From a virus (Duplodnaviria > Heunggongvirae > Uroviricota > Caudoviricetes), in IMG/VR virus record IMGVR_UViG_2585427710_000007, positions 1 to 7,547 of that record: a stretch of 7,547 nucleotides of DNA; one strand, written 5' to 3'. How positions within the stretch are numbered: position 1 is the stretch's first letter; every line of letters starts with the position of its first letter. The notes under the pieces are model-generated. The model was not told the origin of the DNA. It worked only from the letters and a program-made list of their open reading frames with translations, and made no database searches. Positions 1-6,490 of this stretch are shown here, piece after piece. Made by a program: the position numbers and the translations under genes.

Positions 1-164
1 ACAAATACTGCTCGGCGATCTATCAGCCAACGCCCACGAATTTTTTGTGGTCTTGGAACGATGTATCCTAGTTTTCCGTATTTCACCAGGGTAGTGTTTG
101 TTATTGGGAGACTGAACCGTTTTGGTTTCCACTCATCGAGCGTTATCAGGTACTGTTCGCTCAT
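1..164 (-). CDS. Hypothetical protein, N-terminal 54 codons only (gene runs off the left edge)
   Basis: Minus-strand ATG at 164..162 with GGAG 9 nt upstream (rev-comp of 171-174). Open frame to position 1, reading MSEQYLITLDEWKPKRFSLPITNTTLVKYGKLGYIVPRPQKIRGRWLIDRRAVF. Absent from the ORF track, apparently for length. Does not look like RecT. Confidence 0.4.
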   Translation of the reverse strand, partial: MSEQYLITLDEWKPKRFSLPITNTTLVKYGKLGYIVPRPQKIRGRWLIDRRAVF

Positions 165-225
165 GGCTATCACTCCGGAACGCGCCAGTTGCAGAATACC
201 AACGACAACTGGCGACGGTTGAACA

Positions 226-2628
226 TTAAAAATCAGCCTGACTCGGGATCAGTTTTTGCCAGATAGCTGAAACGTATTTTGCCTGGTAACGCGCATCGTG
301 CAGGGCATTATGGCGCTCACCCTCAAATGTGATGACACTTCGAGCATCGAAATCCATCACCAGTCCCATAGCAACCATCGTTCTTACATCGCGATCATTG
401 GTGTAACGCCATGGGCAGGGGATCCCCTGCCGTTCATATGAACGGCGTAAAATTACGTTGTCAAAGTTGGCTCCATTTCCCCAGACCTGAACAAAAAATT
501 CACCGGAGTTTTCGTCGATAAATTCCCGTAATTGCAACAGTGCGTCATCCAACGGGATTTCATCGGTCAGAATGGCTGATTGTGCTTCCCGTGACTGTTT
601 CAGCCACCACTTAATGGTGTCCCGATCGATGACTCCGCCCGCGGTTTCCAGATCGATAGTTTTGCTGAATTCTGGCCCCATCTCTCCGGTTGCCGGATCA
701 AAAAACTTACCGGCCAGAGCGTTTATTGGCGCATCAGGATTTTTGCCCATTGTTTCAAGGTCAATCATCAGATGGTGCCACAACCTGCTGGTGGATGTGC
801 TTTCGTGATGACCGTTCACCTTAATTAAGGGATTTGCTGTCTCGCCTGTTTCATTATTGCCATTGGCATGTTGATCGCCTTCGGTGCACTCCTTGTTCGG
901 GTATACGGCACTCTCCATTTCCTCTGGATCTTTCTCCCGGGCTTCATCCTGGCTTTCTTCGTTGAATGTTTCCTGGTATGTTGCGTCGCCCATTACCGCG
1001 CCACAGTCAGGACAGTTGCCGTCGCCGGTCTGACCGCAGGCGGTGCAGACTTTTTCCGGTTCTTGTTGCTCTTCTGGTTCAGGCTGTTTCGTTTCCGGCT
1101 CGTTTTGTTCCGATTCGTGCTGGTTCTGGTTCACAGAATCGCGGGTTTCAATCCCCTTCACCCATTTCGGATCATTCGGGTCGCTAATCCCTTCAACAAA
1201 TTCTCCGTGAGAAGCAGCCAGTAATTTATCTGCATCGACAGGATTTTTGGGGGGAATGTTTTTCCTGGCTTCATGGAGTTCTGCACGCAGTTTCTGATAT
1301 TTCGCATCAACAGAATTTATCTGTGGCTGAGCATCCATCGACTGCGTGTCCTGATTATGTTCAGTTGTATCCGGTTCCACTGCTTCAGTCGTTGCCTGTT
1401 CATCTGCCATTGCGCCAGTTGGCTGCGGTTTTTCTTCATCATCCTGTTTTCCTTCTTTTGTTACACGCTGCGGCATTGGAGCAGAGGAGCGACCGCAGGC
1501 AATATCCACGATTTCTGGATCAGGGTTGGCATGGTCGGTTTCGGTCAGTACTTTGTTCAGATATTCGGTAACACGGTGGGGAGTAGCCTCGATACCAATT
1601 GGTGCTTCTTTCACGGACGCAACCACTATCGCGCGGGAATAATCCAGGTGACCAGGCATGGCGATGAATTTGTCACGAAAAACAGAAAAGGGCGGCTTAT
1701 TCTCTGAAACGATTTCTTCAATGCGTTTGGCGTGTGCCGGATGTGGATTGTAAATATCGATGTCCATTGAACGGGCCAGAACGCCAGCGGCAACGTCACG
1801 TTCCACTGACGCATCATCGTGGACAAAACCTTCACCGCGATCGGTAAGAATTCCTCCGCCAGCATTAGCGCCGGATGGCGTGCGGCTGATGCGTAAAACA
1901 CGATTTCCTTTCATCCACTCTTTTGTCAGCAGACCTCGATCGGTATAGTCAGCGTCCAGGTATGCTTCGAAAAAAGCAGTCATTAACCCCAGATTGGAAT
2001 TAACGGGATTAGGGAAAACTTTGTCTGTGTCGCGTACCAGTTTGTGAAGGTCGCGAATCTCCAGCGGGTCGAGCAGCTTTGTGTTGTGGGAAATAGCCAG
2101 GGCAGTAACAGCAGGCAGTTCTTCAGCTCGTGCGATATGTAATGCCTGAAGTTCTTCCCGTGAAACGTGCGTTACCGGTTTTTCGCTGCCATGTTGCGCA
2201 AGCCAGCGAATGGGCAGTTCCTGACCGGAAATCGGCAGGAGCATATTATCCTCAATCTCAGCCATGTCTTCGCCATTGACGTTGGTATTGTCAGTGCTGG
2301 CAGGTTTGTCCTGAACTGAGGGGGAAGGCGCTATAAATATCATTGTGATGCCATCTTCTCCGCCTTTTTCATAGCGGTTGCAGAATTCGGTATCAAACAC
2401 ACCTTCAGGCGGCAGGTCATTAACAATAGGCAAATTCACGCGAACAGGTTTTTTGAAATCCTCTTCGTCAAATCCAGCATCGTCCATTGCGACAACACCC
2501 CGTGATATTGCAACCGATAATTTTTTTGCTGTGCGCCAGTAAAAACCGCCTTTAATCCCAAGGCGTTTTCTGACTTTGTCATTTTTGGCTTCGTAATACA
2601 GTGCAATTTCTTCTTTATCAGTGCTCAT
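226..2628 (-). CDS. RecE-like (exodeoxyribonuclease VIII-like) protein, 800 aa, with a C-terminal DnaQ-like DEDDh 3'-5' exonuclease domain
   Basis: Track ORF with GAGG 7 nt upstream of the ATG at 2628. N-terminal and central regions resemble my recollection of Rac RecE (for example [27 protein letters not shown]). There is an acidic low-complexity linker and a C-x2-C-x7-C-x2-C zinc-ribbon-like motif ([16 protein letters not shown]). The C-terminus carries Exo I (MIDLETMG), Exo II ([10 protein letters not shown]) and Exo III ([13 protein letters not shown]) motifs. Confidence 0.85.
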
Positions 2629-2720
2629 TGATAAACCTCATAACTATTTTAAGGTTGTACGAATCCCTGCCATTGCTGGCATACTTAATCAACGGGTATG
2701 GCGTTAATATGGCTGGCGGG

Positions 2721-2909
2721 TTATCCAGCCGGTATTTCGTTATTCAGGTACAGCGATACTTTTTTTAACGGGAGACATTCGCCAGAAATTTTTTGCTCGT
2801 CTCTTGCACGGAGGCATGATTCTTTACTGGCATAAATTCCGGTAATCACTTTCTGTGGCTCACCTGTTATCAGAAAAACCGTCATCATCAGTGTAAACGC
2901 TGAACTCAC
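2721..2909 (-). CDS. ydfD: YdfD-like small protein with a hydrophobic N-terminus (lysis-type peptide)
   Basis: GTG start at 2909 with GGAGG 6 nt upstream; GTGA start/stop overlap with dicB. The N-terminus SSAFTLMMTVFLITG is hydrophobic. Sits immediately downstream of dicB, as ydfD does in Qin. Family assignment is from memory and synteny. Confidence 0.6.
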   Translation of the reverse strand: MSSAFTLMMTVFLITGEPQKVITGIYASKESCLRARDEQKISGECLPLKKVSLYLNNEIPAG

Positions 2910-3094
2910 TGCTGCCCTCCGAAAATGCCAAGTTCAAGAAGGGCAATTCTGGAGAGTATGGAATTATCATTGAGAAGATAAGGCTCATATTTTCTCATCC
3001 TGATGGCGTCCTCAGTAAACTCCCGGTTACTGAGCAGAATACCAATATTAAAACACCCTTCAGACGTATTAACGTTTGGTAGTGACGTTTCCAT
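2906..3094 (-). CDS. dicB: Cell division inhibitor DicB homolog (62 aa)
   Basis: ATG at 3094 with GAGGA about 7 nt upstream. The product METSLPNVNTSEGCFNIGILLSNREFTEDAIRMRKYEP... matches my recollection of the DicB N-terminal half (LPNVNTSEGCF, FTEDAI). It lies about 175 nt downstream of a DicF-like element, as in Qin. Confidence 0.8.
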   Translation of the reverse strand: METSLPNVNTSEGCFNIGILLSNREFTEDAIRMRKYEPYLLNDNSILSRIALLELGIFGGQQ

Positions 3095-3271
3095 TATCGC
3101 GTCCTCAACAATGAATTTTGTGATGTGGTGCCTGGTGCCTCCAGGTGACGTTAACCAGTTAACAATTAACGCCGGATTGTTAGTTGATGTCTGTTACGCC
3201 AGTAAAAGACCGCTTGTTTTAACTGTTCCGCGTGCGCTTAGCCGCATTCACCGCATCACAAAATACACTTT

Positions 3272-3311
3272 AAAAATGGCGGATATCCATTTCCGCCGAA
3301 TCACCAGAAAA
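3272..3311 (-). ncRNA. dicF: DicF-like small RNA candidate (shortened variant) ending in an intrinsic terminator
   Basis: Minus-strand sequence UUUUCUGGUGAUUCG-GGCGGA-aauggaua-UCCGCC-AUUUUU. The 5' motif UUUCUGGUGA matches the start of K-12 DicF as I recall it. A 6-bp GC stem (3292-3297 / 3278-3283) with an 8-nt loop is followed by a U-run (3272-3277). Position upstream of dicB matches Qin. The 5' end is not defined. Confidence 0.5.
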
Positions 3312-3652
3312 GTGATAACAGAGGTTGTTGTGGCGGTGTTGTCACTCAGGCGTATGGTCAACCTGACAACCCGGTGCATTTTCTGGAGTAATGGAGGAAG
3401 CCCCAGCCATACTTACCGCCGCGCCATTTCGCGGATTGCCACAACCGGAAGCGCACGATCGAATTAAATTTAACGACGACCTGTACAGAGAGACTAACTT
3501 CGCCGTGCGCTTTCGTGTTATGCCCTGACTTTTCAGGGATATGTTCTTTCAGTAAACTGTCAGTGCCGGATTCTTATCCGTGTCCGGCGCACGACCACAC
3601 GTGACAGCGTGTTGGTCTCCATTTTTAACCCAGAACCTCTATGGAGGATAAA

Positions 3653-4411: not shown

Positions 4412-4640
4412 GTTGACCTCATTTACCCTTAACGCCGGGTCGCGGAACTAAAAACCTGCTGCGCTGTTATACAAAGTGTTCCCGCCGTCATGTTCATACG
4501 CCTCGGGCTGGCTACTTAACCCCTGACCACTGCCGGGTAACTCGAAGTATTGCCCTGCGTTCTGTTGAATGGGGTGGGTTGGTGAAACAAGGATGCACTT
4601 TTAAAGTTATTATGTCAACACTTATAAAGTTAGGTTGTGG

Positions 4641-4669
4641 GCAACAAAAACCGCCTCGAGATGAGACGG
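4641..4669 (-). terminator. Rho-independent terminator of the paaR2-paaA2-parE2-like operon
   Basis: On the minus-strand RNA, a 7-bp GC-rich stem (4663-4669 paired with 4651-4657, one G-U pair) with a 5-nt loop, followed by UUUUUGUUG (4641-4650), starting 12 nt after the parE stop. Confidence 0.6.
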
Positions 4670-4682
4670 CCCTGTGAAAGGG

Positions 4683-4970
4683 TTAGTTCTGCTTGGGGAA
4701 TTGGCGTCTGGCGTGTACTACACTCACGATCTCAATGCTTAAAGTGGCTACACGGTAAAGAATTATATAGTTAGGGTGAGCTACAATCTCACGCAAGCCA
4801 GGTACTCTGTCGCTTGGTGGGTATAAATACGGGTGTTCGGATAACGGCAGCACACACCCCCTTAATCGCTGCCATAAGCGTTCTGCCGCATCTATGTCGA
4901 AACGAGCAATATAACTAGTTATATCATCTAGGTCGGTATCTGCGCTTTCAAGCCATAACACGGGTAACAT
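4683..4970 (-). CDS. parE2: ParE-family toxin (ParE2-like) of a three-component TA system
   Basis: 95-aa ORF, MLPVLWLESADTDLDDITSYIARFDIDAAERLWQRL...HARRQFP, typical of the RelE/ParE fold and matching my recollection of E. coli O157 ParE2. Starts 3 nt after the paaA2 stop. Paralog 1 versus 2 cannot be settled by eye. Confidence 0.85.
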   Translation of the reverse strand: MLPVLWLESADTDLDDITSYIARFDIDAAERLWQRLRGCVLPLSEHPYLYPPSDRVPGLREIVAHPNYIILYRVATLSIEIVSVVHARRQFPKQN

Positions 4971-4973
4971 TTA

Positions 4974-5162
4974 CTACTTACTCCGTTCCTTGCGCATTTT
5001 AGCAAAGCGTTCTGCCATTCTGCGCTCAACCTCGTCATGGGGAATTGCTGGGCGCGGATTTGCAAGGCTCGCTGCTACTTTCGCACGCAGCCATTCGTTG
5101 TAACTGTTTTCTTGTTCAATGGTTTCGAACTCAGAAACCATTGGTGAAAGGGCCGTATTCAT
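4974..5162 (-). CDS. paaA2: PaaA2-like antitoxin (62 aa)
   Basis: Internal ATG at 5162 with GGAGG 6 nt upstream. Product MNTALSPMVSEFETIEQENSYNEWLRAKVAASLANPRPAIPHDEVERRMAERFAKMRKERSK, close to what I recall of PaaA2. The 83-aa track ORF from 5225 is rejected as an overextension into paaR. Confidence 0.85.
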   Translation of the reverse strand: MNTALSPMVSEFETIEQENSYNEWLRAKVAASLANPRPAIPHDEVERRMAERFAKMRKERSK

Positions 5163-5191: not shown

Positions 5192-5599
5192 TTATGCTCG
5201 ATGCCCTTTCCGGGCAGCGAGCCATCTTTCAATTGTGCGCTCCATTAACTCTTTTTTGTCTTTCATCTCCTGAAGCATTTGTCCCTGTTCTTCCTCTGGG
5301 AATGCACCAAATGTCTGAAGTAGCTCTCTTTGCTTCGGACCTATTTTCATTGTGTCAGGTACCACAATCTGTTCGTCCTCACTTGGTGGCAACATAAACC
5401 AATATGGAGGGAATCCTGTTACTTCAGAAAGTTTATCAAGATTAGCCATTGATGGGCTTGTGATGCCATGAACCCACTTTTGGACCGATTGTTGGGCAAC
5501 ACCTATTCTGCGGGCTAGTTCTGCTTGCTTAAGCCCTGTTTTTTCCAGCACCAGTTTTATCCGGTACGTGGTTATTTCAAGAGTGGTCATTCGCTTCAT
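5192..5599 (-). CDS. paaR2: PaaR2-like HTH (XRE/CI-like) transcriptional regulator, in the cI position
   Basis: 135-aa ORF with a helix-turn-helix region (LKQAELARRIGVAQQSVQKWVHG). Divergent from the Cro-like gene and first gene of the TA operon. The ATG at 5599 has no clear SD, so it may be leaderless; Met4 is an alternative start. Confidence 0.8.
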   Translation of the reverse strand: MKRMTTLEITTYRIKLVLEKTGLKQAELARRIGVAQQSVQKWVHGITSPSMANLDKLSEVTGFPPYWFMLPPSEDEQIVVPDTMKIGPKQRELLQTFGAFPEEEQGQMLQEMKDKKELMERTIERWLAARKGHRA

Positions 5600-5706
5600 G
5601 CATTCATTTTACACAAAAAAAGTGTAGCCAGCACAATCAGCTTGAAAGTGTTGATAGTGTAACTTTTAGAGTGTATAAGTGGTGTCGATTGATTGGAGTT
5701 AGCGAT
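5600..5706. promoter_or_regulatory. Divergent promoter/operator region of the immunity switch
   Basis: Rightward sigma70 candidate: -35 TTGATA (5651-5656), 17-bp spacer, -10 TATAAG (5674-5679). Leftward candidate -10 TAAAAT (rev-comp of 5606-5611), which would start transcription at or next to the paaR ATG. Palindrome TACAC-N7-GTGTA at 5610-5626 and repeated AGTGT motifs at 5647, 5656 and 5670. Confidence 0.5.
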
Positions 5707-5985
5707 ATGCATAAATGTTTAAAAAATAAAATTCGCCAAATAGGGTTATCCCAAGCGGGTGTTGCTCGCTTGATTGGGTTGCCACAGCAGGTTGTATGTC
5801 GATGGGTTAATGGGCAACAGGTCCCTGCATCAAGGGTTTTACAACTATGTGAGATTATGGCGTGGACTGTCACCCCCCACGAGCTCCGACCAGATATTTA
5901 CCCTAACCCAACCGATGGCCTGCCTTGTGGACGTAAGAGTACAGCGAATGAATTACTGGCGGTGAACAATGAAAATCACACCTGA
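5707..5985 (+). CDS. ydaS: Cro-like HTH protein of the YdaS family
   Basis: ATG at 5707 with GGAG 8 nt upstream (5695-5698); the track GTG start at 5671 is less likely. HTH region IGLSQAGVARLIGLPQQVVCRWVNG. Divergent from the repressor and overlaps the ydaT-like start by 17 nt. Confidence 0.7.
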   Translation: MHKCLKNKIRQIGLSQAGVARLIGLPQQVVCRWVNGQQVPASRVLQLCEIMAWTVTPHELRPDIYPNPTDGLPCGRKSTANELLAVNNENHT

Positions 5986-6490
5986 ACAGGTTTGCGAGGC
6001 TCTGGATGCCTGGGTATGCAGACCAGGAATGACGCAGGAGCAGGCGACGATATTAATTACTGAAGCCTTCTGGGCTCTACAGGAACGCCCGAACATCGAT
6101 GTTCAGCGTGTCACGCTTGATGATGGCGGGGTTGATCAGCGTGCGCTTGGCGTTAACCGGGTGAAGATATTCGAACGCTGGAAGGCTATCGACACCAGGG
6201 ATAAGCGTGAAAAATTCACGGCGCTGATTCCGGCAATTATGGAGGCTATCCGGATTAGTGATTTCAGGTTGTACCGCGAAATTACTGACGGAAAAAGCAT
6301 TACGTACATGATTGCCGGGTTAAACAAAGAATATGGAGATGTGGTGGAGTCCGGGCTGCTTTTTGCAGATCCAGCTGTTGTGGAACGTGAGACAGACGAG
6401 CTTATAGAAAAAGCAATCGCTTTCAAGCGTGCCTATCGTCACCAGTACCAACAAAAAGCCGGATGGAATTATGAGCCTTCTTTTTGCTGA
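5969..6490 (+). CDS. ydaT: YdaT-family protein (functional CII analogue in Rac-type prophages), 173 aa
   Basis: Position immediately after the Cro-like gene with overlapping start. The motif REKFTALIPAIMEA resembles my recollection of Rac YdaT. Confidence 0.65.
   Translation: MKITPEQVCEALDAWVCRPGMTQEQATILITEAFWALQERPNIDVQRVTLDDGGVDQRALGVNRVKIFERWKAIDTRDKREKFTALIPAIMEAIRISDFRLYREITDGKSITYMIAGLNKEYGDVVESGLLFADPAVVERETDELIEKAIAFKRAYRHQYQQKAGWNYEPSFC

Follow-up and report, generated by a model that had tools for sequence, protein, structure and literature searches.

The 107 bp that separate a leftward repressor gene from a rightward cro-like gene in the immunity region of a prophage carry a palindrome and several short GTGTA motifs, which raises the question of whether these motifs are the operators of a genetic switch and, if they are, what stretch of sequence makes up a single operator. 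The window that we analysed, a stretch of 7,547 nt, matches Escherichia coli chromosomes, many of them from Shiga-toxin-producing (STEC) isolates, and is the immunity region of a Rac/Qin-type lambdoid prophage of E. coli (STEC). Its switch region is 100% identical in strains P15-385, STEC2017-197 and 99-3311, and the same region or a variant 80–99% identical to it is present in 40 of 5426 complete E. coli genomes. The phage collection that we searched contained no isolated phage with the same repressor, every match falling below 60% identity. We consider it likely, on the basis of the comparisons described below, that positions 5600–5706 are the right operator region (OR) of a lambdoid Rac/Qin-type prophage immunity switch, with three 17-bp operators, a short repressor, a YdaS-like Cro analogue and a further pair of operators (OL) at the promoter PL, and that the repressor of a lambda-style on/off switch very probably binds at the repeated GTGTA motifs.

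The genes on either side are those expected of a CI/Cro-type arrangement, as the earlier note on this DNA had proposed. On the minus strand, the 135-aa repressor (5192–5599; Pfam HTH_3, 1.3e-13), which the RefSeq annotation starts at 5590 and not at the first ATG at 5599, is co-transcribed with a PaaA2-type antitoxin (4974–5162, RefSeq coordinates; Pfam PaaA2, 2.7e-19), beyond which lies a ParE toxin (4683–4970; Pfam ParE, 8e-16) that is 93% identical to ParE2 of the heteroimmune prophage CP-933P. A hairpin followed by a U-run on the same strand (4646–4669; fold dG −16.8 kcal/mol, z −2.8) resembles an intrinsic terminator, and its fold predicts that the repressor-paaA-parE operon would end there; to the left of parE are a DUF1391/ydfA-like gene, dicB, DUF1482 and an exonuclease gene. 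The plus strand carries the YdaS-family Cro analogue (92 aa, 5707–5985; Pfam YdaS_toxin, 1e-10), which matches the solved Cro protein 3bd1, a YdaT-family protein (5969–6490; Pfam YdaT_toxin, 1e-5), whose presumed role as a CII analogue is taken from CP-933P (PMC8630535, PMC9986795), and the gene for a replication O-like protein. Both putative promoters of the divergent pair lie within the interval between the repressor and the YdaS-like gene.

Within this interval the earlier note had reported a perfect palindrome and three AGTGT(A/T) motifs flanking a rightward promoter, and as a description of the sequence this is accurate. The palindrome TACAC-AAAAAAA-GTGTA occupies 5610–5626 and is the sole perfect copy in the window, AGTGTT begins at 5647 and AGTGTA at 5656 and 5670, and a further AGTGTA at 5621 is the right arm of the palindrome itself. 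The palindrome does overlap a leftward −10, the minus-strand hexamer TAAAAT (5611..5606) sharing 2 bp with its TACAC arm, and the rightward hexamers TTGATA (5651–5656) and TATAAG (5674–5679), 17 bp apart, are overlapped by GTGTT and GTGTA respectively. A single palindrome or a single hexamer of this kind is unremarkable: AGTGTW has 11 matches in the window against 6.2 expected, and the palindrome pattern with two mismatches occurs there at chance frequency. It is the clustering that is remarkable, as four AGTGTW within 60 bp were reached by none of 1000 dinucleotide-preserving shuffles, the maximum per 60 bp being 1 in 776 shuffles, 2 in 221 and 3 in one. The idea that the GTGT motifs are by-products of A/T-rich promoter DNA with no binding role draws on the near-chance frequency of each short motif taken alone, but it has next to no probability given this cluster, the independent detection of further copies at PL by a matrix scan, and the conservation across the repressor family of both the position of the sites and the sequence changes linked to the recognition helix, each of which is taken up below.

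For comparison we assembled 51 distinct upstream regions of repressor relatives, drawn from five E. coli prophages of about 85% DNA identity, eighty viral or prophage contigs, and five loci in Klebsiella, Pectobacterium, Rahnella, Citrobacter and Arsenophonus. A scan of representative genomes returned five true relatives only; its other matches were unrelated Firmicute HTH proteins and were left out. The window's own immunity group (group A) is represented by 14 distinct variants. The functional unit that these alignments indicate at OR is a 17-bp site of the form TACAN-N7-NTGTA, of which the window has three, with centres 26 bp (O3–O2) and 23 bp (O2–O1) apart.

O3 (5610–5626) is the palindrome, lying over the −10 and spacer of the putative promoter PRM. 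One of its 17 columns is variable among the group-A relatives (C to T), and the palindrome is accordingly perfect in the window but imperfect, as TACAT-N7-GTGTA, in all of the relatives that are roughly 85–90% identical. O2 (ATCAG-CTTGAAA-GTGTT, 5636–5652, plus strand) places its right arm over the −35 of the putative promoter PR and has the top score in the whole window (20.0) with a matrix (PWM) built from related sites. Its right arm and the PR −35 show no variation across the 14 group-A variants, GTGTTGAT (5648–5655) being invariant; its left arm is degenerate in the window and variable among relatives, some of which have AACAG, and its left boundary is uncertain because CACAA at 5632–5636 is an alternative, vestigial arm. 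O1 (GTAAC-TTTTAGA-GTGTA, 5659–5675, plus strand; PWM 16.5) is located between the −35 and −10 of PR, with its right arm entering the −10. Three of its 17 columns are variable in group A, in which TAACTTT.A.AGTGTATAA (5660–5678) is almost invariant, and a site stands at the equivalent position in all immunity groups. In group A, 5 of 9 columns are variable in one gap between operators and 3 of 6 in the other; counted over the whole intergenic region within the group, variable columns make up 11 of 51 in operators versus 21 of 56 elsewhere, a modest difference only. The matrix scan detected no fourth OR site between O1 and the start of ydaS, where the sequence is variable.

This site model departs from the earlier one, in which isolated AGTGT(A/T) motifs were themselves the sites. 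The copies at 5647 and 5670 are retained as the right arms of O2 and O1 and, like the palindrome, are conserved in related switches, but the copy at 5656 is not. It lies mostly in the gap between O2 and O1, touching only the first bases of the variable left arm of O1, and falls on the most variable columns of the region, with GATTGTGT, GATAATAT, GATAAACT and GATCAGCT among its variants and TTGTGT, AATAT, AAACT or CAGCT replacing it in relatives. Taken literally, the earlier description would have the palindrome and three independent half-sites at 5647, 5656 and 5670 act as four separate contacts, a model that finds some encouragement in the presence of all four motifs on one strand and in the four equally spaced inverted repeats, with overlapping direct repeats, described at the OR of CP-933P (PMC8630535). 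We nevertheless regard it as highly improbable, since the 5656 copy is missing from most relatives of the same immunity, no other immunity group has a fourth site at this position, and the matrix scan does not return it.

The 17-bp sites recur at a second location. The stretch 4440–4680, which had been singled out in advance as a place where the same half-sites might be found, contains two operators on the minus strand: OL2 (4617–4633; PWM 18.3), with its right arm over the −35 of the putative promoter PL, and OL1 (4594–4610; PWM 19.5), between the −35 and −10 of PL. Read on that strand, 4594–4633 comprises CTAAC-TTTATAA-GTGTT (OL2), GACA, TAAT and ATAAC-TTTAAAA-GTGCA (OL1) in succession, so that the pair stands in the same register with the TTGACA −35 as the OR pair does with the −35 of PR. 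The matrix was trained only on the OR sites of relatives, excluding any sequence identical to a site in the window, and it ranks OL1 second and OL2 third in the whole window; the maxima of shuffled windows had a mean of 11.2 (sd 2.2), the largest being 19.0. The OL block is conserved among relatives and both of its flanks are variable. This two-site cluster lies about 1 kb to the left of OR. Upstream of OL2 there is no matrix match that could represent an OL3, that stretch being occupied by the parE terminator. By analogy, OL and PL would be the counterpart of PL/OL in lambda, of PL933P in CP-933P and of dicBp in Qin. An inverted repeat formed between 4937–4953 and O2 was dismissed as a coincidence arising from coding constraint, 4937–4953 lying inside the parE coding sequence shared with CP-933P.

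Conservation of the sites extends well beyond group A. Distant relatives have other recognition helices and intergenic regions that are otherwise unalignable, and they still carry three 17-bp TACAN-N7-NTGTA sites: the first, equivalent to O3, lies exactly 10 nt from the first ATG of the repressor, as it does in the window, and the right arm of the second enters a TTGA −35 and that of the third the −10. Full symmetry of the three OR sites is seen in the TQQTVQQ groups, and three such sites were reached by none of 5000 shuffles; for the window considered alone, the count is a single full ACA-N9-TGT site, a number that 141 of 5000 shuffles reached. Downstream of the operon, at a TTGAC promoter, other immunity groups likewise carry two sites of their own group's type, and the OR and OL sites of one group always share that group's half-site, the pattern to be expected, judging from the sequences, of heteroimmune operator–repressor pairs. 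The reading of 5600–5706 as a divergent CI/Cro-type switch with multiple repressor sites thus gains from gene content, comparative footprinting, the architecture of sites across the family and the CP-933P homologue (PMC8630535), with revision needed only of the site model.

Across immunity groups, the fourth base of the half-site co-varies with the recognition helix of the repressor, the counts being of distinct site variants and not of independent evolutionary events. With an AQQSVQK helix, that of the window, 15 of 18 distinct half-sites read ACAC; with SQQTVQR, ACAC or ACTC accounts for 18 of 21; and with TQQTVQQ all 33 read ACAG or ACAA and never ACAC. The TQQTIQK helix goes mostly with ACAA, and so breaks a simple rule by which Lys or Arg would specify ACAC.

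The proteins themselves are compatible with such sites. Sequence and predicted structure indicate that the repressor is a 434-like Cro/C1 HTH DNA-binding domain joined to a C-terminal helical domain of the PaaR2/DicA short-repressor type. Its predicted structure has a pLDDT of 83 overall and above 90 over residues 6–69, with the DNA-binding domain modelled as a five-helix Cro/C1 fold; Pfam gave no match to a Peptidase_S24 domain in the repressor, and the C-terminus is helical in the model. Among solved DNA-binding domains the closest is that of the 434 repressor, to whose Q28, Q29 and Q33 the residues Q36, Q37 and K41 align. In crystal structures of 434, Q28, Q29 and Q33 read A1, C2/A3 and base 4, respectively, of the ACAA half-site. 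The recognition helix of the repressor is A-Q-Q-S-V-Q-K and that of the YdaS-like Cro analogue P-Q-Q-V-V-C-R; Gln-Gln is invariant in 28 repressor homologues, and in all groups every associated Cro-like protein has it in its recognition helix, which would fit the invariant ACA/TGT core of the operators.

The likeness to 434 thus comprises the Cro/C1 HTH, the Gln-Gln pair shared by the repressor and its Cro analogue, the placing of three operators between divergent promoters, and an invariant outer ACA/TGT triplet around an A/T-rich centre. In the window the outer ACA or TGT is found in both arms of O3 and in the right arms of O2, O1 and OL2, and is absent from the right arm of OL1 (GTGCA) and from the left arms of O2, O1, OL1 and OL2. 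The geometry differs, the 434 operator being ACAA-N6-TTGT, or 14 bp, whereas the window and all relatives have ACAN-N7-NTGT, or 15 bp (17 with the T/A flanks). In the window, moreover, the fourth base is C and a Lys takes the position of 434 Gln33. The 434 repressor also has an S24 autocleavage domain, as do those of lambda and P22, where the window's repressor has a short helical C-terminus instead.

Symmetry within the window's immunity group is confined to O3. The other four sites (O2, O1, OL1 and OL2) combine a strong promoter-proximal half, AARGTGYW, with a distal half that does not match it; the distal half is nTAACTTT in common to O1, OL1 and OL2 and is variable in O2, and in O1 and OL1 an inner palindrome, ACTTT-N-AAAGT, takes the place of the outer TACAC/GTGTA. 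This asymmetry is no argument against function, because the operators of lambda are pseudo-symmetric as well. We consider the most likely explanation to be that the repressor would bind these sites mainly through one half, aided by cooperativity, and we rank this above either of two other explanations. One is that the switch belongs to a cryptic prophage in decay, with O1, O2, OL1 and OL2 eroded and only O3 still able to bind the repressor well. Asymmetric left arms in four of the five sites would be consistent with this, as would the weakness of several promoter hexamers, yet the asymmetric forms are kept, near-identical at OR and OL, in 14 distinct variants, 36 of 5426 complete E. coli genomes have every regulator reading frame intact, and the pseudo-symmetry is one that lambda shares; erosion therefore appears very unlikely.

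The other explanation supposes that a composite half-site is divided between the two regulators, each reading its own part, with one preferring O3 and the other O1, OL1 and OL2, which would fix the order of occupancy. It would account for the outer TACAC/GTGTA being perfect only in O3 and the inner ACTTT-N-AAAGT being perfect or near-perfect in O1, OL1 and OL2, and for distal halves that read nTAACTTT in these three sites as against TACACAAA in O3, the proximal half AAAGTGTA being common to all. Both proteins, furthermore, have Gln-Gln in an otherwise different helix, and CP-933P has two overlapping repeat types, with YdaS filling PRM first and PaaR2 repressing PR more strongly (PMC8630535). 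The sequence pattern is nonetheless the sole basis for such a division of labour, the symmetric outer arms at all sites in other immunity groups point to a single recognition mode as the family norm, and the A/T-rich centres could equally act by indirect readout, as in 434, so that we think it unlikely; if true, exchanging TAACTTT for TACACTTT would alter the site preference of one or other protein. A broader and quite speculative proposal, in which we place rather little confidence, brings these features together: in this DicA/PaaR2-related repressor family a 434-like Gln-Gln helix would act on an operator, ACAN-N7-NTGT, whose centre has 7 bp and not 6, the residue aligned with 434 Gln33 would set the fourth base (Lys or Arg giving ACAC, Gln giving ACAG or ACAA), and composite half-sites, outer TACAC versus inner ACTTT, would allow the repressor and Cro analogue of the window's group to rank the sites oppositely. 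Were it correct, the correspondence between residue and fourth base would amount to a simple heteroimmunity code.

PRM, PR and PL are putative assignments made by match to consensus alone. PRM, on the minus strand, has its −10 TAAAAT at 5606–5611, 6 nt before the repressor ATG at 5599, and a poor −35, GTGCTG (5634..5629), read from the sequence. The same geometry (TAAAAT or TATTAT, 6 nt, ATG) is found in most other immunity groups, the SQQTVQR loci being one base off. With TAAAAT only six bases before the first ATG, the repressor mRNA is predicted to be leaderless, and probably is; paaR2 of CP-933P is leaderless by 5′ RACE (PMC8630535). PR (5651–5679, plus strand) consists of the TTGATA −35, which is invariant in relatives, a 17-bp spacer and the TATAAG −10. 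The −10 is TATAAG, TATAAA or TATAAC in all relatives, always without the canonical final T, for which reason the promoter scan did not list it. PL (4590–4618, minus strand) has a TTGACA −35 (4618..4613), a 17-bp spacer and a CATCCT −10 (4595..4590), and would drive the leftward operon running from the ydfA-like gene through dicB to the exonuclease gene. The −10 of PL and the −35 of PRM are both weak. A poor −35 is compatible with PRM being a promoter that needs activation; O2, however, has its centre at about −45 relative to the presumed start of PRM, as opposed to roughly −42 in lambda, and activation of PRM from O2 is for this reason only a guess. A promoter-like TTTACA-18-CACAAT on the plus strand (5608–5637) is probably a by-product, given that its TTTACA complements the PRM −10 together with the O3 arm.

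In the mechanism that we propose, the repressor would be transcribed leftward together with the PaaA2–ParE toxin–antitoxin pair, probably as a leaderless mRNA. It most likely occupies O1 and O2, occluding the −10 and −35 of PR, and most likely also OL1 and OL2, occluding the leftward early promoter PL, while occupancy of O3 would shut off the weak PRM, over whose −10 and spacer it lies. The YdaS-like Cro analogue probably uses the same sites, beginning with O3 and so turning the repressor off, and the outcome would be two mutually exclusive states. Several parts of this scheme are our inference: which regulator sits on which site and in what order the sites fill, whether the C-terminal domain mediates cooperativity or looping, whether PRM is activated from O2, whether translation is leaderless, and whether the switch is bistable. 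With no S24 domain for autocleavage, the repressor is not expected to undergo RecA-mediated cleavage, and in this it would resemble PaaR2, DicA and the Gifsy repressors; by analogy with DicA and the Gifsy repressors, its induction would be expected to need an antirepressor or some other route.

A switch of this kind is already known, and is not new. In CP-933P (Sp12) of E. coli O157:H7, PaaR2, YdaS and YdaT play the parts of CI, Cro and CII at a bistable locus (Jurenas et al. 2021, PMC8630535), its architecture having been established by EMSA, DNase I footprinting, 5′ RACE, reporters and single-cell bistability (PMC8630535). The window shares with it the gene order (regulator-paaA-parE leftward, ydaS-ydaT-O rightward), a short intergenic region with the first operator about 10 nt from a repressor ATG of the leaderless type, operators over both promoters, and a second cluster at PL to the left of parE. 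The regulators and their sites, in contrast, differ. The window's repressor aligns to PaaR2 only at residues 81–135 (the C-terminal 55 aa, 53% identity), with no detectable similarity to PaaR2 in its N-terminal DNA-binding domain, and its Cro analogue is only 25% identical to the YdaS of CP-933P. The half-site of CP-933P, GTTTAGTAA, is absent from the window, whose half-site is TACAC; the two have no operator sequence in common, and CP-933P has four inverted repeats, or three operators, at OR and three at OL, compared with three and two in the window. A site of the YdaT type, TTGATT-N6-AATCAA, has only chance-level matches in the window. Proteins of the PaaR2 kind form octamers, according to the statement that PMC8630535 makes with citation of De Bruyn 2019. 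The window's switch is very probably a heteroimmune relative, with a new specificity, of the characterised PaaR2/YdaS switch of CP-933P.

Two further systems show other parts of the same design. DicA, of the Qin prophage of E. coli K-12, is likewise a 135-aa short repressor, 34% identical with the C-terminal domain included, and faces a divergent Cro-like gene; a repressor-controlled leftward promoter in Qin drives ydfA ... dicF ... dicB, the same genes that lie downstream of PL in the window. DicA has no cleavage site and is induced through an antirepressor. It differs in that its recognition helix lacks Gln-Gln, and Qin in that it lacks the paaA-parE genes; the DicA Oc operator, a 20-bp repeat TTGTTAG-N6-CTAACAA (PMC3441716), is absent from the window's switch region. 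With lambda the window has in common a tripartite OR between PRM and PR, pseudo-symmetric 17-bp operators with centres about 23–26 bp apart, a leaderless repressor mRNA (predicted in the window) and an OL at PL. In detail, neither its repressor fold nor its operator sequence is related to that of lambda, its OL comprises two sites and not three, OL and OR are about 1 kb apart, and there is no RecA-dependent cleavage domain.

The literature that we searched yielded no paper containing these operator sequences, and the operator sequence with its 7-bp-centre geometry is apparently undescribed, the logic of the switch being textbook. What is gained is an operator map for this immunity type, with coordinates for three OR and two OL sites and the promoters predicted to go with them. 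The type is carried by those 40 E. coli genomes, many of them STEC, and its repressor shares a transcript with an addictive ParE toxin module. The architecture of the CP-933P switch is thereby extended to repressors whose resemblance to PaaR2 is limited to the C-terminal domain, their N-terminal DNA-binding domain being unrelated, and the immunity groups together offer a modest set of naturally occurring pairings of helix with half-site in which the evolution of heteroimmunity can be studied.

One further stretch of the window came up as a candidate. Rfam scans of the whole window, and separately of 3150–3450, found nothing. An apparent third operator cluster at 3264–3316 (PWM 15.1 and 12.8) was rejected, as the block is kept in prophages of other immunity groups with TTCAC in place of TACAC; its counterpart in an alignment with K-12 Qin is the dicF region.

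The repressor (5192-5599, - strand) proves modular when compared with positions 1632-2003 of L159, a comparison sequence carrying PaaR2, the regulator of prophage CP-933P of E. coli O157:H7. Its C-terminal 55 aa share 53% identity with PaaR2 and are also similar to those of DicA, whereas at the N-terminus the repressor and PaaR2 carry unrelated HTHs. Because this unrelated HTH is joined to a PaaR2-like C-terminus beside a ParE that is 93% identical to ParE2, the CP-933P toxin, the arrangement suggests a swapping of DNA-binding domains or immunity around a conserved toxin-antitoxin cassette. The RefSeq annotation starts the repressor at the ATG at 5590 (132 aa, MTTLE...); an alternative ATG at 5599 gives 135 aa (MKRMTTLE...), and the family-wide conserved -10 geometry favours the latter, pointing to a leaderless start at 5599.

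The start of parE (4937-4953, GCTTGAAAGCGCAGATA) forms a 17-nt inverted repeat, 82% complementary, with 5640-5656 (GCTTGAAAGTGTTGATA) at the proposed operator O2. This is probably coincidence, as the parE arm lies within coding sequence that is conserved with ParE2 of the heteroimmune CP-933P.

A promoter scan also returned a rightward-facing match, TTTACA-18-CACAAT (5608-5637, + strand), lying across the proposed operator O3 and upstream of PR, the predicted rightward promoter. TTTACA is the complement of the -10 of PRM, the predicted promoter of the repressor, together with the O3 arm, and the match is therefore probably a by-product, though it may conceivably mark a second rightward promoter. 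The presumed PR -10 itself (5674-5679; columns 95-100 of A1, the alignment of 14 variants from the window's immunity group) has G, A or C as its last base in 14/14 variants, the canonical final T occurring in none (0/14), whereas in other immunity groups the presumed -10 reads TAACCT, TAATCT or TAGGCT, with the final T present.

On the - strand, the untranslated leader of the putative PL transcript (4412-4590, ~180 nt), between PL and the ydfA-like gene, shows almost no variation among relatives (e.g. at 4480-4560), its conservation exceeding that of the adjoining coding genes; a nut-like or antitermination site may lie here, or the stretch may act as an RNA element. Alignment with the K-12 Qin dicF gene places a dicF-like element at 3272-3310 (- strand). 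It gave no Rfam match, even at E<=1; the seed of dicF at the 5' end, TTTCTGGTGA, is retained, as is the T-run of the terminator, but its terminator stem-loop is ~19 nt short relative to K-12 Qin dicF (GGCGGAAATGGATATCCGCC), and longer versions are present in other relatives. The 800-aa exonuclease ORF (226-2628, - strand) joins an N-terminal Exonuc_VIII (RecE-like) region and a C-terminal Rv2179c-like 3'-5' exoribonuclease domain in one reading frame.
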